From NCBI GenBank assembly GCA_045617805.1, contig JAZLJM010000057.1, forward strand, positions 20,998 to 84,997: DNA of 64,000 nt, in the 5' to 3' direction. Shown here piece by piece: positions 5,209-29,359 of this stretch. The position numbers and the translations under genes were made by a program. Every line of letters begins with the position of its first letter. The stretch's first letter is position 1. Source of the DNA: Pseudobutyrivibrio sp. Lineage in GTDB: Bacteria; Bacillota; Clostridia; Lachnospirales; Lachnospiraceae. A model generated the notes under the pieces. The model had not been told where the DNA came from, searched no databases, and was given only the letters and a program-made list of their open reading frames with translations.

Positions 5209-6965
5209 TACTCCTCGCCTCCCTTCTCATCAAAATCTCCTGAACCGCTACCTGTCTGCTGTTCATAGACATCTTTGTAAATCTGGTTACGTGAAAGTAA
5301 CTCTTCATGAGTTCCAAAATCATCGATTCTTCCATCATCCATAACAATAATTCTATCTGCATCCTGCACTGATGATACACGCTGTGCAATGATAAGCTTT
5401 GTCGTACCAGGAATCTCCTCCCTGAAGGCCTTACGAATCTTTGCATCAGTAGCTGTATCTACAGCAGAAGTACTATCATCAAGAATCAAAATCTTTGGTT
5501 TTTTCAGCAATGCTCGTGCAATACAAAGTCGCTGACGCTGACCACCAGATACATTTGTACCGCCCTGCTCAATGTAGGTATTATAACCATCTGGAAATCT
5601 TGCAATAAATTCATCCGCACATGCAAGGCTTGCAGCATGCTTAACCTCTTCATCTGTAGCATCCTTATCGCCCCAACGCAGGTTCTCAGCGATTGTACCA
5701 GAAAAGAGCACGTTATTTTGAAGTACTACCGAAACCTCATTTCGAACTGTTTCTACATCATAATCTCGAACATCCTTACCGCCGACTAACACCGCTCCAC
5801 TATCTACATCATAAAGACGTGATATCATAGAAACCAATGTCGTCTTAGCTGAACCTGTACCACCGATGATACCAATGGTTTCACCAGAATTAATCTTTAG
5901 ATTGATATTATCAAGAACGGCTTTCTCTGCATTTTTGTTATATCCAAATACAACATCATTAAACTCAATAGAACCATCCTCCACCTCATAAATAGGATTG
6001 TCGTTGTTTTTGATAGATGATTCTTCATCAAGAACTTCACAAATACGCTGCATACTAGCCACAGACATCGTAATCATGACAAAAATCATGGCAAACATCA
6101 TCAGGTTAATCAGGATGTTTATACAATAACTAAAGAACGATAAAAGCTCACCAGTTGTAAGCGTCTGGTCTACTACAATAAAATGTGCACCAAACCAGGA
6201 AATCAAAAGAATACATGTATATACGATTGCTGTCATAAGTGGGCTAGTCAAAGCCAGCAGCTTCTCAGCATTTGTAGCAGCTTTATATATACCCTCGGCA
6301 CCCTTTACAAACTTTGTCTTCTCATATGCTTCACGAACATAAGCCTTTACAACACGGATACCAGTGACATTCTCCTGCACAGAAGCATTCAGTTCGTCAT
6401 ATTTTTTCATAAGAATTGTAAAAAGCTTCTTTGTGAAATACAAAAGAATCACCATAATAAATAAAATAAGAATTACCGCAAAAATAAATACGCTCGATAA
6501 TCTATGGTTAATTCTATAAGAAAGAATAAGTGCAACAATAACTGTTGTAGGCGCTCTAAAGCCCATTCGAAGCACCATCATATAAGCATTTTGAACATTT
6601 GTAACATCTGTTGTCATACGTGTTACAAGACCTGCTGTTGAAAACTTATCGATATTTTCAAAAGAAAATGTCTGCACCTTCTTAAACATCGCACTTCTTA
6701 AGTTTTTAGCCAAGCCTGTAGCAGCCTTACTTCCAAAAACTGCACCAAGCACACCACCAACAAGTCCTACAAGTGCACAGCAGAGCATATATCCACCAAT
6801 TCGGAATATATTGCTCAAGTTTCCAACCTCAACACCTTTGTCAACCAAATCTGCTATCAGAAGTGGAATAATCATCTCCATCGATACTTCAAGTATCATG
6901 AAAATCGGTGTCAGCACTGAAGGAATTGTGTAGTCTTTTACTTCATGTAATATCTTCTTTACCAA
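5208..6965 (-). CDS. ABC exporter half-transporter, degenerate-site subunit (TM287/EfrA-like)
   Basis: GGTGSAKT, VSGGQRQR, LILDDSTS (D replaces catalytic E), IAQR (Q replaces H); 1-bp overlap with its partner gene. Confidence 0.9.
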   Translation of the reverse strand: MVKKILHEVKDYTIPSVLTPIFMILEVSMEMIIPLLIADLVDKGVEVGNLSNIFRIGGYMLCCALVGLVGGVLGAVFGSKAATGLAKNLRSAMFKKVQTFSFENIDKFSTAGLVTRMTTDVTNVQNAYMMVLRMGFRAPTTVIVALILSYRINHRLSSVFIFAVILILFIMVILLYFTKKLFTILMKKYDELNASVQENVTGIRVVKAYVREAYEKTKFVKGAEGIYKAATNAEKLLALTSPLMTAIVYTCILLISWFGAHFIVVDQTLTTGELLSFFSYCINILINLMMFAMIFVMITMSVASMQRICEVLDEESSIKNNDNPIYEVEDGSIEFNDVVFGYNKNAEKAVLDNINLKINSGETIGIIGGTGSAKTTLVSMISRLYDVDSGAVLVGGKDVRDYDVETVRNEVSVVLQNNVLFSGTIAENLRWGDKDATDEEVKHAASLACADEFIARFPDGYNTYIEQGGTNVSGGQRQRLCIARALLKKPKILILDDSTSAVDTATDAKIRKAFREEIPGTTKLIIAQRVSSVQDADRIIVMDDGRIDDFGTHEELLSRNQIYKDVYEQQTGSGSGDFDEKGGEE

Positions 6966-7231
6966 TTCAATATCCTCCTAACTGTCTGTATATTGTTTGT
7001 CCTATCATAATAAGACGCAATTTACCCTCTGCTAAAACAACTATTCTAGTATAAACTCATTATTTATTAACTACAACAAACATTTTATTAAATCTTTATT
7101 AATTTTTTATGACAGATTACTTATTGTTAACTATTACATATCAGTTTTTCATTAAAATTTCAATTTTTCTATATAGAATGTCTGATGTAACTCAAAAAAC
7201 TACTCAGATTTGCTTAGAAAGGACAATGACA

Positions 7232-9004
7232 ATGAAAAAACTTATTGTAGGAATTCTTATTATCTCCTTGCTAGCAAGCTCATTATCTGTCTATGGAAAA
7301 AATACAAATGAGAATAAAGCCGACCTTGTTATATTTGGTACCATGTATACATCTGAATCGGAAAATGCCGGACTAGCAGAGGCATTTGCTGTCAAAAATG
7401 GCAAATACGTCTATGTCGGTGACAAAGAAGGTGTAAAACCATACATCCAAGAAGGTGTAACTAAAATTGTCAATCAGCCAACTGAAGGACTAATTATACC
7501 TGGTTGCACAGAAGGTCATGGTCACTATTTTGATGGCACAGGTCTAAATTCTCAACTTCCAGGCTGTAATTGCAGTTATGATGAAGTATTAAAAATAATA
7601 AAAGAACAAGTTGCTACAAAGAACATAAAACAATTTGTATCATTTGGATGGGATTCATATTCTCTTGTTGAAAAACGAAAAAGCGGATTCAATTTTGCAG
7701 AAGAGATTGAAAATGTAGCTCCTGGCATACCTGTAGTACTTATGGATAATACTGGACACGGCGCTGTTTGCAACACTACCGCCTTACAAAAATCTGGTTT
7801 ACTTGATAAACCTGAAGTACGAGGAGGAGCAGTTGAACTTGACAAGAATGGAAAACCAAATGGTTATATTAGTGATCAAGCTTCATCTTACGTCATCGAT
7901 AAAGTAATAAAAGAACCTTTGACAGATGAACAGTACAAAAATGCATGTAACTACGGCATGAACAAGCTCCTATCACTTGGCTATACAAATGCTCTGGATG
8001 CTTATACAAATATGTATGATCCTACAGGTCTATACAAAGCATTAAAAAAGATGGATAATGCTGGAGAGCTAAAAATTAATGTAGCTGGATGTTATAACAT
8101 TAAAAGTTATGATTCAGATATCTATCAAAAGAAAGTTGATGAAGTCGCTGATATCGTAAATAAATATTCTGGATCTCATTTTAATCCAGCTTATATCAAG
8201 CTTTTTACTGATGGTATCGTAGAATCTGGAACTGGTTGGATAGAAAATGAATATAAATATGCTGAAAATGGCAAAGAACACGGTAATATCATCTGGAATC
8301 AGGATGAATTGAATGCTATCACGCAATATGCAAACAGCAAAAACATTATTATACATACTCATGCATATGGTGATGCCGCTGTTAAATCTACAATAAATGC
8401 CTATATCTCTTCAAACGAAGCAAACAAAAACGAATATAGAAACTGTCTTGCACATGTAAGAAATATTCAGGATGAAGATATTATACGTGCTGCAACTAAC
8501 AAAATTCCTATCGCAGAAAACCTGATATGGCATACCGATTTTGACGAAAGAATCCCTTATGAAAAAGCTATAAAGAAACAAATTATTGATAACATTGGTG
8601 AGGACCTATACTATAGCGGATATCCTATGAAATCACTAATTAAAAACGGCGTTATCGTGAGCTCATCTACAGATGCACCTGCAGCAGAAACAATTGAAGG
8701 CAATATCATGAATGTATTAGAGGTTGCCGTAACAGGAATAATTCCTGGTGAGAACAGCCCGTCATTTGCTAAAGATGAACTACTTACTGTAAAAGAAGGT
8801 CTACAAGCACTTACAATTAACGGAGCATGGCAGCTCGGTCTAGAAAAAGAAAGAGGCTCTGTCAAAGTCGGTAAATACGCTGATTTTGTTATCTTAGATA
8901 AGAACATTCTTAATTATAAGGGTAAAGAGCTTCGCACAATCGGAGATACAAAAATCTTAAGTACATATTTTGAAGGAGAAAACGTGTACTCAGCAGAACC
9001 GTAG
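7232..9004 (+). CDS. Secreted amidohydrolase (Amidohydro_3/YtcJ-like)
   Basis: Signal-peptide-like MKKLIVGILIISLLASSLSVYG after an AAAGGA RBS (start moved from 7109); EGHGH, HTHAYGD, AH, SSTDAP, and GSVKVGKYADFVILD motifs. Confidence 0.8.
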   Translation: MKKLIVGILIISLLASSLSVYGKNTNENKADLVIFGTMYTSESENAGLAEAFAVKNGKYVYVGDKEGVKPYIQEGVTKIVNQPTEGLIIPGCTEGHGHYFDGTGLNSQLPGCNCSYDEVLKIIKEQVATKNIKQFVSFGWDSYSLVEKRKSGFNFAEEIENVAPGIPVVLMDNTGHGAVCNTTALQKSGLLDKPEVRGGAVELDKNGKPNGYISDQASSYVIDKVIKEPLTDEQYKNACNYGMNKLLSLGYTNALDAYTNMYDPTGLYKALKKMDNAGELKINVAGCYNIKSYDSDIYQKKVDEVADIVNKYSGSHFNPAYIKLFTDGIVESGTGWIENEYKYAENGKEHGNIIWNQDELNAITQYANSKNIIIHTHAYGDAAVKSTINAYISSNEANKNEYRNCLAHVRNIQDEDIIRAATNKIPIAENLIWHTDFDERIPYEKAIKKQIIDNIGEDLYYSGYPMKSLIKNGVIVSSSTDAPAAETIEGNIMNVLEVAVTGIIPGENSPSFAKDELLTVKEGLQALTINGAWQLGLEKERGSVKVGKYADFVILDKNILNYKGKELRTIGDTKILSTYFEGENVYSAEP

Positions 9005-9161
9005 ACAATGGTGGGATACAACACATAATACCACTTACGATATTCAAAACAAAAAAATCTGGGTTACTGTCCATGAAAGATATGACGAAAACCCTCATGA
9101 ATTTTTTATCAGCAAATAGGATTTAATTCTTACTTCTGAGTGAATTTTTGATAAAAAATAG

Positions 9162-9211
9162 CAAGCCGTTATAGAGGACAGGCTTCAATCCTGTACCTCT
9201 ATAACGGCTTG
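9162..9211. terminator. Long hairpin, probable terminator of the NRPS operon
   Basis: CAAGCCGTTATAGAGG-ACAGG...CCTGT-A-CCTCTATAACGGCTTG immediately after the STAS stop, followed by a T-rich tract on the minus strand. Confidence 0.7.
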
Positions 9212-9216
9212 TTTCT

Positions 9217-9513
9217 TTAAGAAAAATTCATCTTTTTATCAATACCAGTCATAGATAAAATACTCATCACTTCTGAATTTACATGAATAATCTGAAGATT
9301 GGCTTCAATTTCTTTTGCCTTTCTATGGGCTGAAACCAACTGACGTATTCCGGCTGATGAAATATATTCTACCTGCGCAAAATCAAGAATTACTTCTTTT
9401 ACATCTGCTATTGCATCGACAACCTCTCCTAACTGTGGAGCACTTGTATTATCGAGCCAGCCCTCTAGCTCAATTGTTAATTTTCCATCTTCATTTTTTT
9501 GTGTAATCTTCAT
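9217..9513 (-). CDS. STAS-domain anti-sigma-factor antagonist (SpoIIAA/RsbV-like)
   Basis: 98 aa; LEGWLDNTSAP; ILDFAQVEYISSAGIR carries the phosphorylatable Ser; GGAGG RBS. Confidence 0.9.
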   Translation of the reverse strand: MKITQKNEDGKLTIELEGWLDNTSAPQLGEVVDAIADVKEVILDFAQVEYISSAGIRQLVSAHRKAKEIEANLQIIHVNSEVMSILSMTGIDKKMNFS

Positions 9514-9587
9514 ATTTCTTCCTCCAATACCAAGCTAAAATTTCCTAAAGCATCAGCTTTCTTAGGATGATTCTCAAATTTAATATT

Positions 9588-11549
9588 CTACTCTATATTA
9601 TCGTATTTTATTAACGTAAGAACATTTTTATTATCCTTATATTCATATAAGACATTGTCCGCTATTGTAAATGCGATAAGCTTTCCCAATCCTCCCATTT
9701 GCAAATCAGGGTCAAAATCAGCTTCCTCTATTACGGAACTAGTCGGATCATAAGGATTTCCGTTGTCCTCAAAAACAATTTTTATTCGGTCTGAATGTTC
9801 AAAAATGAACCTTATTTTTCCATTTTCTACCTGCTCTGGGTCAGGAAATGCATACGAACAGATATTTACAAAAATCTCTTCTGCGGCTACGCATAGCTTA
9901 AGATTTTCTGAACGGGACAATCTGCTCCTATTTAGAATCGTGCTTCGAAGCTGGTCTATTTGAGACTCATCAGGCTTGATTTCAATTACAGTACGGTCAG
10001 TGAGTGTTAAAGACAACATTGTTATATCATCAAACTGCTCGCATCCACCCATAAAATCCTCAACGGAATGTTTTACATAATCTACTATATTTTCATCATC
10101 TACATACGAATATGCATACAGCGCTTTTTCCAGTCTTTCAAGCCCATAGAAGCTTCTGCCATTATCAACAGCCTCGGTAACGCCATCTGTAAAAAGAAAA
10201 ATAATATCACCTAGCTCAAGCAAAATCTCCTCTTGTGTGTACTTTTCATTTGAAAACAAGCCAAGAACAATATTTTTTGCCCCATCGAGTGGCTTGGGTT
10301 GATCACGAAACATGTATGGAACATTATGGCCCGCATTTGCATATGTAAGCATCTTTGTTTTTGGGTCATATAGTCCAAGAAATGCTGTAGTGAACAACAT
10401 TTTGGGATTGTGCTCTGACAATCTGTTATTGACCATTTCTAAGATTTCTGCAGGCTGGTAATTCATCATTGCGTACTGACGAATAAGTGATAAAGTAACC
10501 GCCATAAACAAGCATGCTGGAATGCCCTTTCCTGATACATCGGCAACACAAAAATATACTCTGCCATCCTCCATAATCATGTAATCGTACAAATCTCCAC
10601 CGACATTCTTTGCTGGAATCATTGTCGAATATATTTCATAATTATCGGATTTATACTCACCAGGCAGCAAAAAACCACTTTGAATTTTTGAAGCAATCTC
10701 CAGCTCAGCTTTTTCACGCTCCTGGACGTTGGAAATCTCACGAATATGCTCAAGATATTTATCTATATCTTTTATCATTTTATTGAAGGATGCCGCAATC
10801 ATCGCAAATTCATCGTCGCCACTATCATCCAATTGAATATTTTTACACTCATCATTTTGAATAAATTCTGTCATAGAATCACTTATCCGCTTCGCAGGAA
10901 TAAAGACTCTCTTTCGAATCATAAAGTACATAAATATTATCAAAAATAAAAACACACCTATCAAAATGTACACAAGCACCAAAAAGCTTTCGGCAATCAT
11001 TCTCATAAGACTCTTATATGAAAGACCCGCCTCTACAATCACCTCAGTACCATGGCTTTTTTCTGAAATAGCTAGCGCTTTTGTTGATTTTTCAAAATAC
11101 GATGCAATAAAATTTGATTCATTTTTTGTACTCAACAATTTATTTTCATCGGTATATGAAAATTCTTGCGTAGTTCCAATTAATTCTTCAAAATTATTTT
11201 TAGAAAATTCACTGTCTTCCTTTGACGAATATCCAAGATAAGTAATCTTCGTACAATTATCAGTTAAACAATAAATGCAGATATACTCAACTCTACCCCA
11301 TGTACAAAAGTAATCTGAATACAAATCAGCATCATCCTTACTTCTCATATCTACGGGTCTGCCCTCCACATTTGCCTGATAGGTTAACAAATCGCAAATT
11401 GTACTAGCAATAGCAACATTATAGCTGTGCACTTCCTTAAACATCATATTCGAGACAACTACAAAGGAACCAATTAAAAAAAGTAATAATCCTGTAATGA
11501 TTAGAACTGCAATCTTTATAGTAAGTTTTTTTGCAAGCGATTGTTTCAT
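9588..11549 (-). CDS. Membrane sensor: TM-extracellular-TM-HAMP-SpoIIE/PP2C phosphatase-RsbW-like HATPase kinase fusion
   Basis: Two TM segments, HAMP (DDEFAMIAASFNKM), PP2C motifs VGGDLYD, ADVSGKG, FTDG, DDIT; C-terminal EEIFVNICSYA, FEDNGNPYDP, GGLG. Confidence 0.85.
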   Translation of the reverse strand: MKQSLAKKLTIKIAVLIITGLLLFLIGSFVVVSNMMFKEVHSYNVAIASTICDLLTYQANVEGRPVDMRSKDDADLYSDYFCTWGRVEYICIYCLTDNCTKITYLGYSSKEDSEFSKNNFEELIGTTQEFSYTDENKLLSTKNESNFIASYFEKSTKALAISEKSHGTEVIVEAGLSYKSLMRMIAESFLVLVYILIGVFLFLIIFMYFMIRKRVFIPAKRISDSMTEFIQNDECKNIQLDDSGDDEFAMIAASFNKMIKDIDKYLEHIREISNVQEREKAELEIASKIQSGFLLPGEYKSDNYEIYSTMIPAKNVGGDLYDYMIMEDGRVYFCVADVSGKGIPACLFMAVTLSLIRQYAMMNYQPAEILEMVNNRLSEHNPKMLFTTAFLGLYDPKTKMLTYANAGHNVPYMFRDQPKPLDGAKNIVLGLFSNEKYTQEEILLELGDIIFLFTDGVTEAVDNGRSFYGLERLEKALYAYSYVDDENIVDYVKHSVEDFMGGCEQFDDITMLSLTLTDRTVIEIKPDESQIDQLRSTILNRSRLSRSENLKLCVAAEEIFVNICSYAFPDPEQVENGKIRFIFEHSDRIKIVFEDNGNPYDPTSSVIEEADFDPDLQMGGLGKLIAFTIADNVLYEYKDNKNVLTLIKYDNIE

Positions 11550-14500
11550 ACTTCCTCATCCTCAAAATAATCAAGTGTCATAAGACTTTCCAATGCACGC
11601 TCAAGATATGCAATATCAGGAAGTGGCCAAGAAAATCCCAGTCGATACAAAATATTTGTAGTAAATGTATTGTCAGACTCTACTCCGTGGAGGTCTGGAC
11701 GGTCATTTGTCATTAATCCCTGCAGCTTTTGATTTTCCTTTGTATCGGCAAGCAATCGATGGTAATCTGCATAATATTCCTTGTCTGGAACTGGCGTAAT
11801 CTTTATTCCCACGTGATTTGCCGCCTCTATCAGTTGTCGCTCATCAAATAAAAATCGGCTGTCAGCGCTAAACGCCGTAAACATATCATTTGTTCCTGCT
11901 AATAGAACTACAGCCCTTGCCGTCATATCTATTGGCGAAAAACTCATAACATCTGTCATATGGCTGGCTGGTGACTTTCCAATCACCGCAAAGCCTCGTA
12001 ACGCACTTAGAAAAGCATTTGTATTGAAATTGATTTGGAACTCGCCATCCTTATGTCGTCCCATTAGATTTCCAACACGGATAATCTTGCCACGCAAACC
12101 GTTTTTTATTGCCTCAAGCATCTTAAGCTCGGCATGATATTTGGAAATACTGTACTTATTTCCCATATCATCGATAACAAAAAGCCTGTCCTCATACATT
12201 TTTACACGCATTTTAAAGGTTTCTGCGGTGTGAACACCTGGAATTGAAACAGTAGAAATCTGTATCATACGTGCATTTTTCTCCACTGCCGATTTAATAA
12301 GATTTTCCACTCCACCGACATTGATTCTTTCGAGAATATCATCGGCTGCATAATGCTTAACGCATGCGGCACAATTTATTATCGTATCAAACGAAATATC
12401 CTTCAAAACCTCAGTTACATTGTCTGTTACATCTGCTTCAATTACGTTGACACGACTTTCAACAAGTTCCTCAAATGGGTCATCAAAATAGTAAATCAGC
12501 ATATTTCGAAGGCGTCTTTCTGGTGAAGCAAAGCTGCCACGACGTATTAAACAATAGATTTTTCCTTCTTCCGACTCAAGAAGCTCACGCAAAATGTGTA
12601 TTCCAAGGAATCCAACTGCTCCTGTCAAAACCACATCTCCTAGAGGTTCTCTTGTTAACTCTTCTGCATATTCAAGCGAATTGTATTTCAATTGCTCTGA
12701 ATAAACCATATTAACTGGCGAAGAGCTATTATCTTCCACAAATTCATCCTTTTTCTTTGCTGAATTCAATGAACCGATATAATCAGCAAGCTCTTCTGGT
12801 GTCGGATGGTCAAAAATATCCTGATATTGTACCTCAATACCTTTTGACATTAGCTGCATGATAACCTTTGATGCAGAAAGAGATGTTCCACCAAGCTCAA
12901 AGAAGCTATCATCAGCGTATACCTCGTCTAGGACTAACGCCTTTGCATACAATTCACAAAGCTCCTGCTCTAAGGATTTTTTCGGTGCTTTACGCCCCTT
13001 GCTCTTTCTTTCCTTCTTTACCTCTGGAAGTGCCTTTTTATCAATCTTTCCACTAGGTGTAAGCGGCATAGCCTCAAGCTGCATAAGGATATCAGGCACC
13101 ATGTAGTATGTAAGTCTTGACTTTAGGTATGCACTAAGACTTCCTGTATCAATCTCTTTTCCTGCTGTAAAGAAGCCTACGAGATAGTCCTCAGAGCCAT
13201 TATTTCGTACAACAACCTTTGCCTGTTTAATTTCCGAAAAGGCACAAATTGCTGCTTCGATTTCATCAAGCTCTACTCGATATCCACGCAATTTTACCTG
13301 ATTATCAAGGCGTCCTGCGAATTCTATTTCTCCCTTTTCATTAAAGCGTGCAAGGTCACCACTATGATAAGCACGAACTCCTTCTACCTCAAAATAAGAA
13401 GCTTTTGTTTTCTCAGGAAGATTTACATAGCCTCTTCCCACACCTTCACCTAAGATGATAAGCTCACCAAGTGCATATGGCGGCAATATTCGACCTGTCT
13501 TATCCATTATCAGGTATTGAAAGTTTGGCGCTGGAGAGCCGATAGTGATTTCTTCTGAAGGCGAAAGCAACTTCGCACTTGACGATACCGTACACTCTGT
13601 CGGGCCATATCCGTTATAAATATGAATATCCGGCGCAATCTTATATAATAACTCATACAACTCAGGCGAAAATACTTCCGCACCAACTAAAAGTATTTTG
13701 AGCTGTCGAACACACTCTTCAAAGCAGTCATTTCCAAGCAAATTTGTCAAGAAAGACGGCGTACACAGCATAACATCTACTTTATTATCCAAAATAAGCT
13801 TAGAAAGAGCTATTGGATTATGGACATCTGCTTCTTTAGCAACTACAACAGTCTTTCCCTGACTAAGCGGAAGAAGTATCTCTGGAATATGAATATCAAA
13901 AGAAACTGATCCCATCGCTATTTCTGTCTGTGCGGTATTACCACTTTCACAAAACTCTCTTGCTATACAAAATGTCTGAACAAAATTTGAAAGACCATGG
14001 TGCTCAATCATTACGCCCTTCGGATTGCCGGTGGAGCCTGAAGTATAAATACAGTATGCCAAATCACTAGTATCTGCTGTCTTTTCTGGATTTCCTGCAG
14101 CCTCACCTGCCATAAGCTCTTCTACTGTAAGAGCAACAAATCCTGCATCGCTTGTGAAAAGCTCCTTCCTCTCGTTCTTGATTTTTTCAGTCGTTATTAC
14201 AAAAGGACTCTTTGAATCCTTTAGGCAATAGCGAATTCTGTCGTCTGGATACTCAGGCAACATAGGAAGGAATGCACCCCCTGCCTTCAGTATTGAAAGC
14301 TCCGCTACCACAAGATTTGATGAACGTTCAAGAAGAACACCAACAACAGTATCTTTTTGCACCAAAAGACTTATCAATCGCGCTGCAAAACGGTTTGCAC
14401 GGTCGTTTAACTCCTTGTAGGTAAGCTTTTCTTCCCCACAGATTAACGCAATTGTATCTGGAGCTTCTAATACATGTTCTTCAAAAAGTCGACTTGCCGG

Positions 14501-17500
14501 AATATTTTTGAAAGGAAAAGCAGTATCATTTATGCGTGATAAAAATGTCTTCTGCTCATCCTTAAGCACAGAAATATCATCTGTCTTTTCTTTTTCTGTA
14601 AAGCCACAAAGTACCAAATCAAAGACCTTCAGCATGCTTGAAATCAATGATTCATTAAACATACTGCTCTCATAATCAGCACTAAGGATATACTTTCCAG
14701 CTTTTAGATTTACTGTAACAGTAATTGGCGCTTTGGCTACATCTGGAAGAACCTTTATAAACTCAGCTTCTTTTCCACAGAAGGTTTGCATATTAAATTC
14801 TTCTCCCTGGTAAACAAAGAGAATATCCGAATGGATTCCGTAAGCCGCACTGATTTCTGCAAAGGAATAAATATCATGCGACATAGTGTTTATAAGCTGT
14901 TCCTGAGTCGAACCAATAAGCTCTGCTATATCAGAATTTTCAGAAACACGAACCAGCATAGGAAGCGTCTTGACTAGCATAGTTACACAAAGGGATAGCC
15001 TTGAGTCGCTTCTGCCATTATAAATTGTGGTGTAAACTGCTTCTTCAAAATTACTAAAGAAATTTAAAGTATATGCAAAGGCAGCATTAAAGAACGCATT
15101 TTCAGTAAATCCGTGCTTGCGACAGTATTCAGTTACTGAAGAAACAGCCGTATCTGCTGTGCGCATTACATTTTTAGCACCCTGCTCACTTGCCCTTGCA
15201 GCCTTTGGTGGCAAACAGTTAGCATCACATCCGCGGAAAATTCCGTCGTAATACTCTTTGGCTTCTTCGAATCTTTCAGATGCCCTGTTTTTCTCCTCTA
15301 AAAGAGCAGCCTCAAAGCCTGTGTAGCGCTCCTTTTTTATCTCCCTGTCACAATATGCTTTATCAATTGCATCTATAAATATATTTTCAGAGACACCATC
15401 CATCACAATATGGTGGCAATCCATAAAGAAATAATTTCCTTCATTTGTCTCATAAATGGATACTCTGCAAAGCGGCGAACCAAGCAATGTAAACGGATAA
15501 ACCAATTCTTCCGCTTTTGGCTGTTTATCGCACTTTATTATCTCAACAGATATTTTTTTCTCATCATCTCTTTTTGCTCGAATATTTCCATCCTTATCAG
15601 CAAAAAGCTCAGTTTTCAAATAAGGATGAGCATCAATAGCTTTTTCAACTGCACTGGCAAGTTTATTTATATCTGTCGTGCTATCAAGCTTTACAAGTAG
15701 AGGTATATTGTATGTTACCGAATTTGGATTTCCTACACATTCGATATAGATTCCCATCTGTGTCTGTGTAATCGGATAATCCTCTTGGATTTCAAAGACT
15801 TCTTCTACAGTGCCTTCACTTAAAAATTCCTCAAGCTCTCTTATTGTCCTGTTTTCAGCAAGGTCAGTTATCTTTACTGGAACCGAAAAAGCTTCTGATA
15901 GTTCAACATTTAATCGCACCGAACCAATTGAAGTAAGACCAGCTTCATAGATGTCAGTATCAATTCCAAAGCCAGCATGTCCAATTACATTCTTTACAAT
16001 GTCAAAGATTTTCTTTTGAAGCTCTGTTTTTGGTTCAACCACTTCAGCAGAAGAAAACTCTGGCACTGGAAGCGCCTTACGATTAACCTTTTGATTCTGA
16101 TTTAACGGAATTTTGTCAATTTGCATAGTGACTGCAGGAACCATATACACTGGTTTTTCCGATTTTATAAAGCTGTAAAGGTCATCTATATCCACTTTTT
16201 CATCGGACACTACATATGCAGCCAGATATTTTCCACCGGCTGGTTCTGTATACGCAACAACAGTTGCATCCTTTATTCCATCAAAACGTCTGATTACTTC
16301 CTCTACTTCACTTAATTCAATTCTAAAGCCTCGTATCTTGACCTGGTCATCGTGACGGCCAATGAAATCAAGGCGACCATCAGGAAGAAATCGGACAATG
16401 TCTCCTGTGCGATAAACCCTGCTGTATGCTTCATCCTTTGAAAATGGGTTATCCAAATATGCATCTTTTGTCTTTTCTGGGAGATTGATATATCCCTTGC
16501 TGACCTGTCGACCCGCAATCAAAAGCTCTCCCGGGGCACCGATAGGAAGTCGATTCATATGTCTATCAACAACATAACCCCTGTCATATGGATTAATTGT
16601 TCCAATAGGAATTCTTAAAGAATGTTCCTTTACTATCTGTGTTGCTACAAATGCGGTGCACTCTGTAGGGCCATATCCATTACAAATATCAAAAGAAAAG
16701 CCTGATGTATCAAGAGGTATCAGCACTTCACCACCCAGGAATAAATATTTTAGATATGGCGACTTTGTAAGCAGCGCGTACTGTCTTCCAACCTGCGTAG
16801 TCATAAAGGCATGAGTTATTTTATTTTTAGTATAGTATGCATCAAGAACCTTTAAATCAAGACGAATATCCTCTGAAATGATGTGAATTGTACCGCCATT
16901 TGCAGGGATTGTCACAAGATCCATCATGCAGGCATCAAAGCCATAGGAAGCATAACAGGCATTTACTGTATCCTTCCCAAGATTAAACCTTTTCCTTGCA
17001 ATTTGAGCTAAAGCTGAGACATTTCCTTGGGTAAGCATTGCACCCTTAGGGTTTCCAGTTGTTCCGCTGGTATAAAGAAGAATGAAAAGATCTTCCATAC
17101 TGTTTTTTACATTTATCATAGACGCTTCTTTAAGCGACATAACATCTTCTAAATACAGACGCGGACCAGAAAAATTATTTATCCTTCCTTCGAGTTCATG
17201 GGTGGTAACAAGTAGCTTAGCCCCTGAATTTTCCACCATAAAGGATAGTCTTTCCGAAGGGTACGACGAATCAAGCGGCTCATAAGCACAACCCGCTTTT
17301 AATATTCCATAAGTCGCAAGCACAATCCATTCATTTCTTGGAATAAGTACAGCCGCCACATCATTTGGCTTCATACCGAGGTTAACAATAAATCCTGCAA
17401 TTTTATTTGCAATTGTATCAGCCTCTTCATAAGAAATATGCTTATCGCCACAAACCACAAGCTCGTGCTTTGGATTACTTCTAACCTGATCCTGGAAAAA

Positions 17501-20476
17501 TTCCATAACCGTCTTCTGCTCAAAGACTTCTTTGCTGTCACAAAATGAATCCAGCACCTCCTCCTGCTTCGTTGAAAGAAGTTCCAACTCACTTAAATAC
17601 TCCTTTGTCAGAAATTCATTAACTACCTGACAGGTTGCATCTGCAAAGGCCTTAATTATCTCTTCTGCGAACAAATCACTTCTGTAGCGGAAGCTGAGAC
17701 GGTACGAATCTTCATCCTTAAACACCATCAAGGTCAGCTTATTCATAGCATCCGGATTCTCAATTCCAACAACCGGGTACTCTTTTTTTGAAAGCTTAAG
17801 CGTACTAAAGCTATTGCCCTGGTAAACAAATGAAAAATCAGTACTTAAGCTATACTGCTTTACTACCTCACTAAATGGAAAAATATCATTTGCAACACAA
17901 TCACTAAAATCCTTCTGAAGGCCGCAAATATAGTCTGAAACACTATTTTCTACTGTTAAATCCGAAGGAATAACCAGCGTTTTTACAAGCATTCCAGCCG
18001 TGTTAAAGGTCATAGAGGTATGGCGTCCGCTTTCACCAACACTAACCAGTGCCTGGTCTGTTCCATTATATTTGCAAAGCACATATGAAAATGCGGCAAG
18101 AAATAGCGAATTTTCAGTCAAATTATTGCTCTTTATAAATTTCAGCAGCTCTTCCTTATTTGGCGTTACTGACACATTTACAGTAGCAAGCGTCGATTTT
18201 CCCTTGTCTGGAAAATCACACGTGAAATCATTAGAAATATCTATATCTGAGAATTTGTTTGTATAGAATTCCCTAGCTTTTTCGTATCTATCTGTCTTTT
18301 GAAGCGCATCTTCATAAGCGGATAAATCAAAGGCAGACGTACGCTCCTCATAAATATCCACTCCATCATATATTTTTTCAATTTCAGAAAGAAGAATAGA
18401 CAGCGTTGTGCCATCAAATACAACATGATGTGCGTCAAGAGCAAGCACCTTTTCATGCTCATTTTCAAAAAGGCATGCTCGAATTAATTCTTTGCCAGAA
18501 AGGTCAAATGGCTGAACAAATTCCCTAAGGTCAGCCTCTATATCTGTGCTGTTTTTATGCTGTACACTAAATTGCCTATCGTCAGGAACCATACAAGGTA
18601 CTTTATTTTGTATATCGATACTACAGTGATAAGCCTTATGATTATTCACAGCCCTTGCAACAGCATCAATAAGCCTTTTTGAATCTACATCAGTAGATAA
18701 GGTTATACTTATTGGATTATTATACATAAGGCTTTCTGGCTTTTGAATTGCCTCCAGATATACCCCCAACTGAGAAGTAGTCAAAGGATACTCCGACCTT
18801 TCAACCCTATCAAATTCAGGCTCATCTGCACCACCATTTTCTATCAGCTTTGCAATAAGAGCAGGCGTCCTTCCCTGTATAAATATCTGCGCATCAAGTG
18901 GAAGATCATCCAGCATATTGATAGCTTCCATTGCCTTGACAGAATCGCCGCCAAGAAGGAAAAAGTCATCATTTCTTCCTACATTTTCACAAGAAAGCAC
19001 CTTTTCAAACGCCTTACAAAGAGCCTCCTCAAGCTTATTTAAAGGCTTCACATATTCACTCTTATACGCAGAAAAATCAGGCTCAGGAAGATTTTTTCGG
19101 TCCAATTTTCCATTTGGATTTATTGGCAGCTTATCCATTTGGATATAGAAGGATGGAACCATATACGAAGTGAGATTTATTGTACAGTACTCCTTTAACT
19201 TTTCAGGCGATATAGACTCCTCGCTTGTATAATATGCTGCAAGGTAAGTGATTCCGTTTTTTGCAGTAAAATCTCTGATAACAGCCTCTTTTATCCCTGG
19301 AAAACGGCGAATTGTACCCTCGACCTCACCTGGCTCGACACGCTGACCATTGATTTTTATCATCCAGTCCTTGCGCTCAACAAAAACAAGATTTCCATCA
19401 TCAAGACGCGTAACAATATCCCCTGTTCTAAACATTCGATCATAACCGTCAATTTCTTTAAAAGGATTTTTAACAAATACTCTCTTTGTTTCCTTTTCAC
19501 GATTCAGATACCCTTTTGCCAAATATCCTGAAATACAGAGCTCGCCTGTGACTACCTCTTGATTATTATCATCTAAAACGTATGCCTTTTCTTCACCAAC
19601 TGGTTTACCAATTGGCGTATTATCATATTTTTTATCGATTGCAAAAGCTAAAATTGCACCAAAGGTTTCTGTCGAACCGTATCCATTCACGACGACAGGG
19701 TTCCCATCAAAAAATATATCCCTGATTCTTTCTGAACCCACAGAAATAAACTTCAACGATGAATTATGTTGAAGCATAAAATCAACCATTCTTGGTGGAA
19801 TAAATGAAGACTCGATATTATTTTCATCATAATAAGCAGCTAATTTGTATGGGTCTCGACGGATTTCATCTGAAACAATATAAAGATGCTTTGCCATAGA
19901 CATAGCAGCAAGAAAAAGTGATATACCAACTATAAACGTAAAAGGAGCCACCAAACCAGCAATATCATTTTTTTCTGTATCATCTGCTTCTTCTCTGGAA
20001 ATATTTCTGTCTATTACCGCTGCAATAGAATAAAAATCATGAATTACACCTTTCGGATTACCAGTAGAACCCGATGTATAAATCACGATTCCTTCATCAG
20101 AAAGTTCACCAATATAAGGCTCTGTTGTCATAGACATATCCATAGCCTTGATAAACTCAGAATTTATTGTAAGCTCACACTTTGAATCATTTTTTATATA
20201 CAAAAGTCTTTCTTCAGGATAGTCATCAGAAAGAGGAATCGCAACTGCTCCACAAAACCAGCATCCCAAAAGCGCTCCCGCATACTCCTTACTCCTAGGA
20301 ATCTCAACAATAATACGACTTTTAGGCCCTGCGCCCTTTGCCCTCAAATTCGCAGCTATCACCAAACCATAATTCAGCAGCTCCCCATAAGTAAATGTAC
20401 TGAATTCATCTGATACAGCCGACTTATCCTCATTTTCTTTTACAATTCTTAAAAATGTCTCAATAAAATGCTCCAT
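11546..20476 (-). CDS. Trimodular NRPS, A-T-C-A-T-C-A-T-R (terminal thioester reductase)
   Basis: Three YTSG(S/T)TGNPKG A3 motifs; T-domain Ser motifs GGDS, GLTS, GGTS; C domains HHVVFDG and HHIVMDG; R domain TGAVGFLG, NCAA, YSISK, RVGNL. Confidence 0.95.
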   Translation of the reverse strand: MEHFIETFLRIVKENEDKSAVSDEFSTFTYGELLNYGLVIAANLRAKGAGPKSRIIVEIPRSKEYAGALLGCWFCGAVAIPLSDDYPEERLLYIKNDSKCELTINSEFIKAMDMSMTTEPYIGELSDEGIVIYTSGSTGNPKGVIHDFYSIAAVIDRNISREEADDTEKNDIAGLVAPFTFIVGISLFLAAMSMAKHLYIVSDEIRRDPYKLAAYYDENNIESSFIPPRMVDFMLQHNSSLKFISVGSERIRDIFFDGNPVVVNGYGSTETFGAILAFAIDKKYDNTPIGKPVGEEKAYVLDDNNQEVVTGELCISGYLAKGYLNREKETKRVFVKNPFKEIDGYDRMFRTGDIVTRLDDGNLVFVERKDWMIKINGQRVEPGEVEGTIRRFPGIKEAVIRDFTAKNGITYLAAYYTSEESISPEKLKEYCTINLTSYMVPSFYIQMDKLPINPNGKLDRKNLPEPDFSAYKSEYVKPLNKLEEALCKAFEKVLSCENVGRNDDFFLLGGDSVKAMEAINMLDDLPLDAQIFIQGRTPALIAKLIENGGADEPEFDRVERSEYPLTTSQLGVYLEAIQKPESLMYNNPISITLSTDVDSKRLIDAVARAVNNHKAYHCSIDIQNKVPCMVPDDRQFSVQHKNSTDIEADLREFVQPFDLSGKELIRACLFENEHEKVLALDAHHVVFDGTTLSILLSEIEKIYDGVDIYEERTSAFDLSAYEDALQKTDRYEKAREFYTNKFSDIDISNDFTCDFPDKGKSTLATVNVSVTPNKEELLKFIKSNNLTENSLFLAAFSYVLCKYNGTDQALVSVGESGRHTSMTFNTAGMLVKTLVIPSDLTVENSVSDYICGLQKDFSDCVANDIFPFSEVVKQYSLSTDFSFVYQGNSFSTLKLSKKEYPVVGIENPDAMNKLTLMVFKDEDSYRLSFRYRSDLFAEEIIKAFADATCQVVNEFLTKEYLSELELLSTKQEEVLDSFCDSKEVFEQKTVMEFFQDQVRSNPKHELVVCGDKHISYEEADTIANKIAGFIVNLGMKPNDVAAVLIPRNEWIVLATYGILKAGCAYEPLDSSYPSERLSFMVENSGAKLLVTTHELEGRINNFSGPRLYLEDVMSLKEASMINVKNSMEDLFILLYTSGTTGNPKGAMLTQGNVSALAQIARKRFNLGKDTVNACYASYGFDACMMDLVTIPANGGTIHIISEDIRLDLKVLDAYYTKNKITHAFMTTQVGRQYALLTKSPYLKYLFLGGEVLIPLDTSGFSFDICNGYGPTECTAFVATQIVKEHSLRIPIGTINPYDRGYVVDRHMNRLPIGAPGELLIAGRQVSKGYINLPEKTKDAYLDNPFSKDEAYSRVYRTGDIVRFLPDGRLDFIGRHDDQVKIRGFRIELSEVEEVIRRFDGIKDATVVAYTEPAGGKYLAAYVVSDEKVDIDDLYSFIKSEKPVYMVPAVTMQIDKIPLNQNQKVNRKALPVPEFSSAEVVEPKTELQKKIFDIVKNVIGHAGFGIDTDIYEAGLTSIGSVRLNVELSEAFSVPVKITDLAENRTIRELEEFLSEGTVEEVFEIQEDYPITQTQMGIYIECVGNPNSVTYNIPLLVKLDSTTDINKLASAVEKAIDAHPYLKTELFADKDGNIRAKRDDEKKISVEIIKCDKQPKAEELVYPFTLLGSPLCRVSIYETNEGNYFFMDCHHIVMDGVSENIFIDAIDKAYCDREIKKERYTGFEAALLEEKNRASERFEEAKEYYDGIFRGCDANCLPPKAARASEQGAKNVMRTADTAVSSVTEYCRKHGFTENAFFNAAFAYTLNFFSNFEEAVYTTIYNGRSDSRLSLCVTMLVKTLPMLVRVSENSDIAELIGSTQEQLINTMSHDIYSFAEISAAYGIHSDILFVYQGEEFNMQTFCGKEAEFIKVLPDVAKAPITVTVNLKAGKYILSADYESSMFNESLISSMLKVFDLVLCGFTEKEKTDDISVLKDEQKTFLSRINDTAFPFKNIPASRLFEEHVLEAPDTIALICGEEKLTYKELNDRANRFAARLISLLVQKDTVVGVLLERSSNLVVAELSILKAGGAFLPMLPEYPDDRIRYCLKDSKSPFVITTEKIKNERKELFTSDAGFVALTVEELMAGEAAGNPEKTADTSDLAYCIYTSGSTGNPKGVMIEHHGLSNFVQTFCIAREFCESGNTAQTEIAMGSVSFDIHIPEILLPLSQGKTVVVAKEADVHNPIALSKLILDNKVDVMLCTPSFLTNLLGNDCFEECVRQLKILLVGAEVFSPELYELLYKIAPDIHIYNGYGPTECTVSSSAKLLSPSEEITIGSPAPNFQYLIMDKTGRILPPYALGELIILGEGVGRGYVNLPEKTKASYFEVEGVRAYHSGDLARFNEKGEIEFAGRLDNQVKLRGYRVELDEIEAAICAFSEIKQAKVVVRNNGSEDYLVGFFTAGKEIDTGSLSAYLKSRLTYYMVPDILMQLEAMPLTPSGKIDKKALPEVKKERKSKGRKAPKKSLEQELCELYAKALVLDEVYADDSFFELGGTSLSASKVIMQLMSKGIEVQYQDIFDHPTPEELADYIGSLNSAKKKDEFVEDNSSSPVNMVYSEQLKYNSLEYAEELTREPLGDVVLTGAVGFLGIHILRELLESEEGKIYCLIRRGSFASPERRLRNMLIYYFDDPFEELVESRVNVIEADVTDNVTEVLKDISFDTIINCAACVKHYAADDILERINVGGVENLIKSAVEKNARMIQISTVSIPGVHTAETFKMRVKMYEDRLFVIDDMGNKYSISKYHAELKMLEAIKNGLRGKIIRVGNLMGRHKDGEFQINFNTNAFLSALRGFAVIGKSPASHMTDVMSFSPIDMTARAVVLLAGTNDMFTAFSADSRFLFDERQLIEAANHVGIKITPVPDKEYYADYHRLLADTKENQKLQGLMTNDRPDLHGVESDNTFTTNILYRLGFSWPLPDIAYLERALESLMTLDYFEDEEV

Positions 20477-20550
20477 TGTAAAACCCCCTCATCATATATA
20501 AATATTGTACCCCATTTTCCCGTAAAATAGTGAGAGTTAGCCAAATTTTT

Positions 20551-20639
20551 AAAATTGTCCTTTTGGGGCGCACAAGTCTTTTGGTTGTGGGGAATTCCCC
20601 CACAACCTCTAGTGCTGTGCGCACCAAAAGGACATTTTT
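20551..20639. repeat. About 90-bp nested palindrome between tRNA-Pro and the NRPS
   Basis: AAAATTGTCCTTTTGGGGCGCACA ... TGTGCGCACCAAAAGGACATTTTT with inner GGTTGTGGGG-AATTC-CCCCACAACC. Confidence 0.8.
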
Positions 20640-20648
20640 AAAAATCAA

Positions 20649-20721
20649 TCGGAGTGACGCGAGTCGAACGCGCGGCCTCTACATCCCGAATGTAGCGCCC
20701 TACCAACTGGGCCACACCCCG
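20649..20721 (-). tRNA. tRNA-Pro (anticodon CGG), CCA not encoded
   Basis: Minus strand CGGGGTG...CACTCCG acceptor stem, CAGTTGGTAG D-loop, CTACA-TTCGGGA-TGTAG anticodon arm, GTTCGA T-loop. Confidence 0.95.
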
Positions 20722-20756
20722 ATAAATATTAGCTGACAGACAGTGTCAGCTAAATC

Positions 20757-24082: not shown

Positions 24083-25600
24083 TCACTTCTTCCTATAACT
24101 TTTCATCATCTGATTTTTTTCAAAAGGAATATTCCTCATTCGTATTTCAGTAATATTTTTATATTTTGGAAGACTTCTATTAACTGTTACAATATCCTTT
24201 TCCAAAAGACTTTTTGCATCAGGATATCTTTCAATATCTAAATAGAACTCACCCACTATTTTATCATTTTCTTCATATACACAAACCTCTTGAACATAAT
24301 TTAATGATAGAAATTTACTTTCTATTTCCTCCGGAGACACATTTTTTCCATTTGACAAAATTATTAAATTCTTTTTTCTACCCGTAATATAAATATACCC
24401 CTCATCATCAATATAACCCATATCTCCCGTGTATAAAATCCCATCCTTAAGAACCTTATTAGTTGCAGCGGCATCCTTATAATACCCCATCATTACATTT
24501 TCGCCACTAACCGCAAGCTCACCAATGCCATTTTTATCAGGTGCATTTACAAAAACCTCACAGCAACTTATTGCCCGCCCTACACTTCCAATGTGAACTC
24601 CTGCTTTAACAGTATCCATTGATATAATAGGCGAACATTCTGTTATTCCATATCCATATACTATTTCTATTTCTTTCCGACAAAGTTTTTCTTGAATATC
24701 TATTGGTAAGCTTGCTCCTCCACATAGGATTATTAATCTTTTACCAAACAGATTATTTATTTTCTCATTTGTCATCTCTTCTATCTTGTCATATATCATT
24801 CTAATAATAGCAGGAACCAGAATAACACAATCTGGTTGTAACCTTATTAAATCCTTAATTATATTCCTTGGTGTTGAAAAATTCACAATTCCTCTAAATA
24901 CTAATGAAATACCCATAACACTCGTTAATGTAAAAACATGATATAATGGCAATGGTACCAAACAAACCGAGTTACTCTCTATATAATATCTAGAACATCC
25001 GGCATACATATTTTCAATAATATTTTTTTGACTCAGCATAACAGCCTTCTGATCACCTGAAGTCCCCGATGTAAATACTATCTGAGCCGGTAAATCAACG
25101 TTACTAAAGCATTCTAGCTCACCTTGAAAATCTTTATCCCCACTAATTACTTCATTTACAATGCTACCAATACATTTTAAAGAAATAACCTTAATTCCAT
25201 TCTTTTCAAATTTCTCCTCATAATCTATGTATGTATCTGAAATAAATATTGCCTTACAATCAGTATAAATTAGGCGAGCTAATATTTCGTCTGGCGGCAA
25301 CTCCTTTTCAATTAATACAGCTACACAATCACTACAAATAATTCCCAGGTATGCTATGAACCATTCGGAATAATTTTCCCCTAAAATTGCAATATGTGAT
25401 TCTCGAAAATTTTGCAACAAAAAATCCTGAATCCTTTTTATTGAAAAATACAAATCTGTAAATGAAACCTTTTTTTTCTCATTCTCACCCAAATAAAGAG
25501 CAGGCAAATCGCCATGCTCTTCATGATTCTTTTTTATTAAACCTGAAATTGTTTTATTAGATGATAATTTATTATTCACTATTTCTCTTTCTTTTCTCAT
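24083..25600 (-). CDS. AMP-binding enzyme (long-chain acyl-CoA/acyl-ACP ligase-like)
   Basis: FTSGTSGDQK, YGYGITE, TGDMG, GRKKNLIILSNGKNVSPEEIE. Confidence 0.85.
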   Translation of the reverse strand: MRKEREIVNNKLSSNKTISGLIKKNHEEHGDLPALYLGENEKKKVSFTDLYFSIKRIQDFLLQNFRESHIAILGENYSEWFIAYLGIICSDCVAVLIEKELPPDEILARLIYTDCKAIFISDTYIDYEEKFEKNGIKVISLKCIGSIVNEVISGDKDFQGELECFSNVDLPAQIVFTSGTSGDQKAVMLSQKNIIENMYAGCSRYYIESNSVCLVPLPLYHVFTLTSVMGISLVFRGIVNFSTPRNIIKDLIRLQPDCVILVPAIIRMIYDKIEEMTNEKINNLFGKRLIILCGGASLPIDIQEKLCRKEIEIVYGYGITECSPIISMDTVKAGVHIGSVGRAISCCEVFVNAPDKNGIGELAVSGENVMMGYYKDAAATNKVLKDGILYTGDMGYIDDEGYIYITGRKKNLIILSNGKNVSPEEIESKFLSLNYVQEVCVYEENDKIVGEFYLDIERYPDAKSLLEKDIVTVNRSLPKYKNITEIRMRNIPFEKNQMMKSYRKK

Positions 25601-26712
25601 ACATTATTTTTCAGCAAAATTCCTTTTTTATATTTTACCTTAATAGCCAACACTTTTTTATGCAAAAATAACCATCCATATGACATACAAAATGCAAACA
25701 GGAATGAAATCATAAATTGTAAAAATAAACTTGGTGTAACTTCCACTGGTTCTAAAATGCATCTGCCGTTTTGTATACCAGTAATTTGAAAAAATGACAT
25801 TGCAAAAAATATGTGTACAAAATTAATATCTGCTGCACCTCTACCCATAGTTGTTAAGAAAACAGATACTTTTTCACATTTTGCTAAAACCCTTGCCCCA
25901 TAAAGACATGGAATAATACATAATCCGCCAACAAGCATTCCCAAAAACCAACTATAAAATGAAGAATCATTCATTAAAAATCTTCCTGATGCTACATGAT
26001 TTATTTCTAATTGAGAAGAAATACAAATACACGCCAACAATAAACTCAAAGAAATTACTATCCGCTGCCATTTTAATAACTGCAAAAACTTCAAATATAT
26101 TTTTTCATATTTTAAAATATACCCCCAAAAAATGAACATTGAAAATGATGGTATCATTTGTAATTGAAATGGCAAATTAGGAAGAAAAATATAACACATT
26201 GCTGAAAATGTCAGTAAAATGCTAACAGTTGCTATTTTCCAAGCCTTTCCTTTCATATATAATTTAATAACCAAAATCGTAAGAATATTTGCAAGAATAT
26301 AATCTCGCATCAACCAATACACCGAAAATACCTGTTTAAATCTATAACCTGGATATTCCATTCCTGGTATTTTTTGTACTAATGATTCTGTAAATATTTC
26401 GCACAAAGTCGAATATATACAACCAATAATGTCCATTTTTCCTGTTATTATCATAATAATACTATATAAAAACGCCAAAATTAAATAATATTTAGTCAAA
26501 TAAATAAATGGCACAAAAACATTATCATGATAATTCTTACTCAAAGATACTTTTCCACCTGCAAACTCATAGCCTGGCACAATGAAAAATATTAACACCA
26601 AAAAACCCACGCACCTTATCCAAGGTCGTGGTGTGTATATATTAATAAATAATATGTGTAGCACCATAACAGCTATTATACTGACACCTTTTGATACATT
26701 AATCTCTCTCAT
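25597..26712 (-). CDS. Membrane acyltransferase family 3 protein
   Basis: N-terminal KGVSIIAVMVLH motif, many TM segments, late ..H.F motif; ATGA overlap with the ligase. Confidence 0.6.
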   Translation of the reverse strand: MREINVSKGVSIIAVMVLHILFINIYTPRPWIRCVGFLVLIFFIVPGYEFAGGKVSLSKNYHDNVFVPFIYLTKYYLILAFLYSIIMIITGKMDIIGCIYSTLCEIFTESLVQKIPGMEYPGYRFKQVFSVYWLMRDYILANILTILVIKLYMKGKAWKIATVSILLTFSAMCYIFLPNLPFQLQMIPSFSMFIFWGYILKYEKIYLKFLQLLKWQRIVISLSLLLACICISSQLEINHVASGRFLMNDSSFYSWFLGMLVGGLCIIPCLYGARVLAKCEKVSVFLTTMGRGAADINFVHIFFAMSFFQITGIQNGRCILEPVEVTPSLFLQFMISFLFAFCMSYGWLFLHKKVLAIKVKYKKGILLKNNV

Positions 26713-26947
26713 TTGATTTCTTTCCTTCTACACATTTAATTAAATCATTTATTGAATATATATTATTAAGGTCTCGCTCGGAAAATTTTATCTCGAATAT
26801 GTCCTCTATCTCAACTATATATTCTAAAAACTGAAGCGAAGTAATTCCATATTCGGACATCATAATATCTATATCGAGTTCCTCGACAGATATTTTTGTT
26901 TTTTTACTAAAATATTCTTTAATTTTTTTCTCACAATCCTGTTTCAT
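26699..26947 (-). CDS. Acyl carrier protein
   Basis: 82 aa, acidic; YGITSLQFLEYIVEIEDIFEI contains the phosphopantetheine Ser motif. Confidence 0.8.
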   Translation of the reverse strand: MKQDCEKKIKEYFSKKTKISVEELDIDIMMSEYGITSLQFLEYIVEIEDIFEIKFSERDLNNIYSINDLIKCVEGKKSNERD

Positions 26948-26949
26948 TT

Positions 26950-29355: not shown

Positions 29356-29359
29356 ATAT

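Follow-up and report, generated by a model that had tools for sequence, protein, structure and literature searches.

The partner switches of Bacillus, RsbU-RsbV-RsbW-sigmaB and SpoIIE-SpoIIAA-SpoIIAB-sigmaF, contain a PP2C phosphatase, a GHKL serine kinase and a STAS protein with a conserved serine. The locus analysed in this study has the same three components; unlike the Bacillus switches, it holds no cognate sigma factor, and its kinase shares one chain with a membrane sensor phosphatase. The Mycobacterium tuberculosis protein Rv1364c is cytoplasmic, with a STAS domain of its own. It resembles the fusion described here in carrying RsbU and RsbW domains on one chain (3ke6), whereas our fusion is membrane-bound, has a Cache-like sensor and is accompanied by a separate STAS protein. 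STAS switches without a sigma factor are also known, namely Vibrio SypE/SypA and Bordetella BtrUVW (accessible part of PMC8256260) and Pseudomonas SiaABCD (PMC7278518), and in these, as in our locus, a kinase and a phosphatase set the phosphorylation of a small output protein. SypE is bifunctional (PMC8256260), and SiaA is a membrane PP2C (NF038263 match E 3e-16, below the cut-off). Their outputs are biofilm, secretion and a diguanylate cyclase, and in the accessible text none is connected with a non-ribosomal peptide synthetase (NRPS) or with a transporter-fused RsbW-like domain.

The combination of such a switch with an NRPS was published in 2010 for the neighbourhoods mru0066-0071, mru0351-0352 and mru0512-0516 of Methanobrevibacter ruminantium M1, where the genes were proposed, from annotation only, to act in sensing, in controlling NRPS expression and in export (PMC2812497, as far as accessible). 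According to the same source, these loci have an NRPS with a terminal reductase (R-type), serine phosphatases, an anti-sigma antagonist and an anti-sigma-type kinase, as ours does, but differ from it in having a MATE exporter and a PPTase in cis; in our locus, moreover, phosphatase and kinase form one chain and the NRPS begins with a stand-alone A-T unit. Lauric acid up-regulates mru_0351, two MATE genes and a PPTase together (accessible part of PMC5816558). In the literature, in part seen as excerpts, we found the gene association only in PMC2812497, and Guo 2017 or Schneider 2018 may have mentioned it earlier. The dipeptide-aldehyde NRPSs of gut Clostridia (ruminopeptin, Guo et al. 2017) are likewise small, R-terminated enzymes of gut Firmicutes predicted to free a dipeptide aldehyde, a likeness drawn from description only (excerpt of PMC12327764). 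The cassette is a variant of the known sigma-less partner switches, and the association of these genes had been described before.

We analysed a window of 64,000 nt (the whole stretch of DNA under study) from contig JAZLJM010000057.1 of Pseudobutyrivibrio sp. GCA_045617805.1, whose genome (G000) is 77% complete. The features are listed in Table 1. The three ORFs of the preliminary description, NRPS, fusion and STAS, were recovered, all on the minus strand, and the overlap between the TGA of the NRPS and the ATG of the fusion was borne out (ATGA, 11549-11546). Fusion and STAS are separated by 74 nt with a GGAGG site in the gap. The two closest relatives of the fusion (L010 and L011, 43-44% identity) have exactly the same gene order, which agrees with the earlier view of the three genes as one unit; in L083 and L081 the STAS gene precedes the fusion. 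L010, L011 and the archaeal L045 share the stop-start overlap with G000. The three genes are presumably co-transcribed. The STAS gene is followed, as had been described, by a strong hairpin (arms of 23 nt, -38.7 kcal/mol, z -9.9, none of 200 shuffles equally good), which is likely a two-way terminator between convergent genes. A promoter scan performed at chance (50 hits versus 48.3 expected), and the same scan missed the real hairpin.

Table 1. Features of the NRPS-switch cassette and its surroundings (window coordinates)
Feature	Position	Strand	Basis or remark
tRNA-Pro(CGG), upstream edge of insertion	20648..20722	-	tRNA search, Rfam
48-bp inverted repeat, between tRNA and NRPS start	20545..20645	.	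repeat search
NRPS, 2976 aa, A1-T1-C1-A2-T2-C2-A3-T3-R	11546..20476	-	ORF list, domain search, motifs
A1 starter adenylation domain	19067..20476	-	APFTFIVG aligned to LgrA SSFSFDGS
A2, pocket D-A-M-F-F-G-G-A-F	16067..17524	-	motif anchoring
A3, pocket D-I-P-L-L-G-G-V-S	13022..14494	-	domain search, motifs
Terminal reductase (R) domain	11546..12643	-	TGAVGFLG 2618, STVS 2741, YSISK 2775
Membrane sensor phosphatase-kinase (fusion), 653 aa	9588..11549	-	domain search, motifs, structure model
Extracellular sensor, residues 35-185	10995..11447	-	predicted sCache/PAS-like fold
PP2C phosphatase domain	9999..10667	-	domain search, orthologue alignment
RsbW/SpoIIAB-like kinase domain	9588..9992	-	domain search, motifs
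Stand-alone STAS protein, 98 aa	9217..9513	-	TIGR00377, Ser53 alignment
Strong hairpin between STAS (-) and amidohydrolase (+)	9155..9218	.	repeat search, folding
Amidohydrolase-3 gene	7109..9004	+	inside the same inserted interval

The NRPS contains three AMP-binding and two Condensation domains, PP-binding domains and NAD_binding_4 by Pfam, and its catalytic motifs are intact, including the T-domain serines (Ser512, Ser1516 and Ser2532) and the HHxxxDG motifs of the C domains (HHVVFDG at 683, HHIVMDG at 1688). The pocket residues of the A domains were placed by motif anchoring, with a position numbering that we take to be the usual one. In A1, an Ile stands at the site where domains that activate amino acids, LgrA for instance, have the Asp that binds the alpha-amino group, and the same holds for L010 and L011; therefore, A1 likely loads a non-amino carboxylic acid as starter. 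The predicted substrate of A2 is likely an aliphatic hydrophobic amino acid. The R domain is of the SDR type with the NAD(P)H motif and the catalytic Tyr and Lys present, and its closest solved relative is the PCP-R of M. ruminantium Mru_0351 (6vtj, E 7.5e-72), an enzyme whose product is unknown and whose structure does not reveal how far the reduction proceeds (accessible part of PMC8024701). Judged from these motifs, the reductase probably releases an N-acylated dipeptide as its aldehyde or alcohol. Two genes of ACPS-family PPTases, one with an Sfp-type N-terminal domain, lie in trans in the host genome. With the PPTase, like any effector, encoded outside the cassette, the label 'self-contained' once given to the system is questionable.

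The fusion matches SpoIIE (E 6e-47) and HATPase_c_2 (E 1e-10), in the order TM, extracellular single-Cache-like domain, TM, HAMP-like helices, SpoIIE/PP2C, HATPase_c_2. The architecture proposed earlier holds for the two hydrophobic segments, the phosphatase and the kinase; its HAMP domain is only a weak match after TM2 (Pfam E 0.0017, below the cut-off), recorded in the orthologues P0006 and P0007 and helical in the structure model. The metal-binding residues D319, D337, D455, D507 and D508 of the PP2C domain are invariant in 12 of 12 orthologues. The N, G1 and G2 motifs of the kinase domain are intact (E558, N562, D595, G597, G620 and G622), which points to a GHKL serine kinase with predicted activity. 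The best Foldseek match of the whole model is the RsbU-RsbW part of Rv1364c (PDB 3ke6, E 7e-20); a phmmer search with only the kinase domain turned up no relative of known structure. The model of the sensor (pLDDT 60) has its best structural match in 8py0 (Z 9.3, rmsd 3.8, 135 aligned residues), and most of the top matches are Cache/PAS sensors; Foldseek with the modelled sensor gave no match at E < 0.001. With modest confidence, we predict a single-Cache-like fold with a long helix and a PAS-like sheet. A profile built from the sensors of eight orthologues (P0001-P0008) matched L010 (1e-20), L011 (3e-15) and L083 (4e-7), and weakly L141 and L126; its matches were confined to NRPS-adjacent phosphatases, with none at the 75 loci of the fusion's relatives that lack an NRPS. 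Among 399 genomes of the class, two of them left unscored, only the host genome matched the sensor. The sensor family is rare and may be dedicated to NRPS loci, perhaps sensing the product, and co-inheritance explains the pattern equally well.

The STAS protein matches TIGR00377, the anti-anti-sigma type, above the cut-off (E 6e-16), and the DauA/YchM model at E 0.002. Its Ser53, a putative phospho-acceptor, aligns with the serine of SpoIIAA that comes directly after an Asp; this residue is present without exception in the NRPS-linked STAS proteins (14 of 14).

The cassette is flanked by a ROK gene and an ABC exporter. These two lie on one contig at most 3 kb apart in 31 of 33 genus relatives (on separate contigs in the remaining two) and 13.8 kb apart in the host, and an R-type NRPS occurs in only one of 24 genus genomes, with 43% identity and in another place. 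Because the flanks are close together in relatives and the NRPS is rare in the genus, we regard the interval as a lineage-specific insertion after tRNA-Pro. The nearest relatives of the cassette are labelled Lachnospiraceae. In most genus relatives a TetR-like gene, upstream of the exporter, comes next after ROK; it was not found in the 77% complete host genome. The 3' end of the tRNA occurs only once in the window, so there is no sign of an att duplication; no integrase was detected among the window ORFs scanned and no close plasmid copy (102 records, all below 60% identity, 99 of them from Bacillus), and an Rfam search returned nothing but tRNA. The 48-bp inverted repeat has relatives on at least 18 other host contigs, often as pairs spaced about 300 bp or at contig ends, like a dispersed MITE- or REP-like family of this genome. 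The amidohydrolase-3 gene is likely a co-passenger, none being found beside related NRPSs. The flanking ABC exporter was ruled out as a cassette gene, since it is present in 33 of 33 genus relatives; this core heterodimeric exporter (3298-6965) could export the NRPS product. Elsewhere in the window, possibly another acquired island lies at 24083-30565, a low-GC block (28-31%) that encodes an AMP-binding enzyme, a protein resembling acyltransferase-3 and an FtsX/ABC pair.

To see the linkage from the side of the NRPS, we collected 85 R-domain loci by searches of the family, the order, the phylum and relatives and by a metagenome scan, and five more through the fusion; nearly all R-domain matches were taken in, a few weak or duplicate ones being left out. 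In a quick tree of 90 rows, in which nine outgroup rows failed the composition test and from which L158 was dropped (truncated R), all 30 NRPSs that adjoin a switch fall into a single clade (SH-aLRT 100, 51 rows), together with seven that have a MATE only, and a switch adjoins none of the 39 R-type NRPSs outside this clade. Counting 45 clade loci, that is, excluding the window and the five loci found through the fusion, switch domains lie within two genes of the NRPS at 24 (19 with a MATE-HATPase, that is, a MATE exporter fused to an RsbW-like domain, 12 with STAS and 6 with PP2C), against a background of 31 of 1,268 genes in the host genome. Another 7 of the 45 have a MATE only, and 14 have neither switch nor MATE, several of them at contig edges. 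Over all the DNA examined around these NRPSs, STAS was found at 17 loci and PP2C at 8. Clade members are kin and not independent, so the pattern represents a single ancient association followed by many losses and should not be counted as 24 events. The co-occurrence of NRPS and switch across genomes is real and clade-specific; the layout of the window (fused PP2C-kinase, STAS, no MATE) is a minority within it, PP2C-kinase fusions occurring at 2 of the 45 loci. L120, among the closest R relatives (73%), has no switch downstream and no orthologue of the fusion in its 85% complete genome; its NRPS (L120:1-7930) begins at a contig end and is broken in two by a frameshift between C1 and A2, through decay or assembly error. 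The genome of L011 holds a second NRPS of 4000 aa followed by a full-length MATE-HATPase-like gene (L271:110-13830).

From the side of the switch, 80 loci with relatives of the fusion include 67 with a STAS match and only 5 with an NRPS, one of these being in a Methanomethylophilaceae bin and adjoining a methylamine corrinoid gene. The loci lacking an NRPS contain 9 MATE proteins whose C-terminus is RsbW-like, 12 symporters that carry such a domain at the N-terminus (hhalign 95.5%, E 1e-8), 17 STAS-APH fusions and 11 HD proteins. This variety of neighbours indicates that the switch module is general and often lies beside transporters bearing its own kinase fold. The symporter genes that adjoin PP2C-kinase and STAS (L012:1011-4173, L019, L030, L031, L033, L038, L039, L050 and L084) belong to the sodium:dicarboxylate family, and their N-terminal domain is a degenerate RsbW-like one; an ABC ATPase with an RsbW-like domain was seen at L074:4569-5705. 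Other arrangements are a recurring operon of PP2C-kinase, HD_4 (RelA/SpoT-like hydrolase), STAS-APH fusion and STAS (L014, L025, L028, L029, L036, L047, L058, L062 and L064), and PP2C, solo kinase and STAS adjoining baseplate/tail-like genes and a gene that encodes an ADP-ribosyltransferase domain (L037, L044, L054 and L088).

The commonest partner in the clade is the MATE-HATPase (19 of 45), whose RsbW-like domain is degenerate and which is absent in cis from the window, L010 and L011; at L232, L233, L236, L237 and L239 the STAS gene follows it directly. Nine further MATE proteins are extended at the C-terminus but gave no alignment with the solo kinases (hhalign 1%) and were counted as MATE only. 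All six motif residues of the kinase are kept in 70 of 73 PP2C-fused and 23 of 23 solo domains and in none of the 27 MATE-fused ones, which keep the Glu and mostly the Asn and Asp and have lost the first lid glycine (ATP lid). These motifs fit a division in which PP2C-fused and solo domains would be writers and MATE-fused domains readers. A complex predicted for the STAS of L122 and its own MATE tail scored 0.51 versus 0.03 for the best control, with contacts agreeing at least 96% and a partner pLDDT of at least 88; the mark applied was reached by 116 of 157 solved pairs and 2 of 215 mismatched pairs, and at scores up to 0.60 by only 18 solved pairs and both mismatched ones. The predicted complex resembles RsbW/SpoIIAB complexes, a likeness that could account for the score, and it weakly supports a STAS-MATE tail complex for this pair, which belongs to a relative and not to the host; the STAS of the window is 41% identical to that of L122. 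The host genome has two MATE-HATPases in trans, without an NRPS (C55:21173-25136 and C9:4696-6405); the one on C55 has 784 aa, a further C-terminal extension and its own PP2C gene next downstream. The trans MATE-HATPases of G000, G401, G402 and G004 share only 21-28% identity with an NRPS-linked one. Our literature search found no paper on MATE-HATPase fusions or transporter-fused RsbW-like domains.

Functional coupling of NRPS and switch has, in our opinion, a fair probability. The output that we consider most likely, ahead of direct control of the synthetase, is gating of a transporter (probability about 0.4). A trans PPTase would prime the T domains, A1 would load a non-amino acid, A2 and A3 would add two amino acids, and R would free the aldehyde or alcohol. 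A ligand, perhaps the product, on the Cache-like domain would shift the balance of PP2C and kinase at Ser53 of STAS, and STAS would dock on the degenerate RsbW-like tail of a MATE exporter and so gate release, with no sigma factor involved. In the window, the exporter would have been lost in cis, leaving as candidate target one of the MATE-HATPases encoded in trans by the host (C55:21173 or C9:4696). The distant relationship of these trans proteins to the NRPS-linked ones is the main weakness of transporter gating for the window copy. Also against it are the lack of a cis MATE in the window, L010 and L011, the PP2C neighbour that the C55 copy has of its own, the absence of a switch at L120, the 14 of 45 clade loci without switch or MATE and the scarcity of PP2C (8 of 45).

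Sensing of the product as the input step is compatible with transporter gating. It is unlikely, although conceivable, that the product is instead a signal whose detection by the Cache-like domain feeds a wider STAS network and not its own export. The confinement of the sensor profile to NRPS-adjacent phosphatases and the seven STAS matches in G000 favour this, as does the finding (Pfam check of 54 neighbours) that 29 of the 39 R-type NRPSs outside the clade have a gene for a histidine kinase, an HD-GYP or GGDEF protein or a regulator at most two genes away (background 200 of 1,268); but shared sensors may only mean co-inheritance of one cassette, and other clade members use different sensors, e.g. 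dCache. The outside NRPSs (L145, L146, L148, L150, L152, L156, L220-L227, L231 and L245-L256) are mostly followed by a 7TM/HAMP histidine kinase and REC-HD-GYP, or by a GGDEF-HD-GYP protein. That the switch is a general sensor cassette travelling with the NRPS with no functional tie seems to us rather improbable: NRPSs are absent from 75 of 80 fusion-type loci in the DNA stretches examined (some contigs being short), and the switch genes are often absent or rearranged in the clade, yet the stop-start overlap has been retained at L010, L011 and the archaeal L045, and the linkage persists through several families into archaea at about 30% protein identity (PMC2812497).

Two readings appear improbable. 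The preliminary description had suggested that the phospho-state of STAS controls the synthetase directly by docking on T domains. In the subclade of G000, L010 and L011 the NRPS is the sole other cis gene, the STAS of YchM binds ACP (accessible part of PMC3340395), and SiaC controls an enzyme through direct binding (PMC7278518). This suggestion fared poorly, however: the STAS of YchM is part of a transporter and belongs to another subtype than the anti-anti-sigma type found here, STAS was seen at only 17 of 45 clade loci, and 100 longer homologues of the PP2C-kinase region include no NRPS fusion, which is weak evidence. The other improbable reading is action in trans on a sigma or anti-sigma factor, regulating transcription. 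This is the canonical role of these domains, and G000 carries two non-primary sigma-70 proteins, and the 258-aa alternative sigma on C103, for example, could be a target; SigB/F/G proteins score above the cut-off in 9 of 21 carrier genomes. None does so in the 77% complete G000 or in the five other near-complete genomes of the genus, the kinase is joined to a membrane phosphatase, and the cassette occurs in archaea, which have no sigma factors (PMC2812497), the archaeal carrier G1194 giving no sigma match at all. The window, as described earlier, is free of sigma factors (no sigma-70 family member among the 39 main ORFs scanned), and no match was found at any of 90 related loci with a small profile that could miss ECF types; in G464 there is one weak sigma-like match about 12 kb from the NRPS. 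Action on a cognate sigma factor is unlikely, in line with the earlier proposal of another target. Taken as a whole, the earlier interpretation is partly supported.

Sigma-less STAS switches often have no known target (accessible part of PMC8256260), and the clade pattern offers a candidate, the transporter-fused RsbW-like domains. The window copy is without this most telling gene, the MATE-HATPase. The pattern offers a candidate input too, the rare Cache-like sensor, and is testable with three small proteins. For the reductase NRPSs of rumen and gut, among them the enzymes of a major methanogen of the rumen, products and control are little understood (accessible part of PMC8024701), and control by a switch would offer a reason why such clusters may yield no product in culture. 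In a wider reading, which we offer only tentatively, gut and rumen anaerobes may have rebuilt an anti-sigma switch as a transporter gate, in which sensor phosphatase-kinases would be the writers that phosphorylate STAS, and the readers would be RsbW-like domains, degenerate in their catalytic motifs, on MATE exporters and on amino-acid/dicarboxylate symporters. One NRPS clade would then sense its own reactive peptide and gate its release and sister clades would use histidine kinases or c-di-GMP, so that these metabolites would be signals, not just protease inhibitors.
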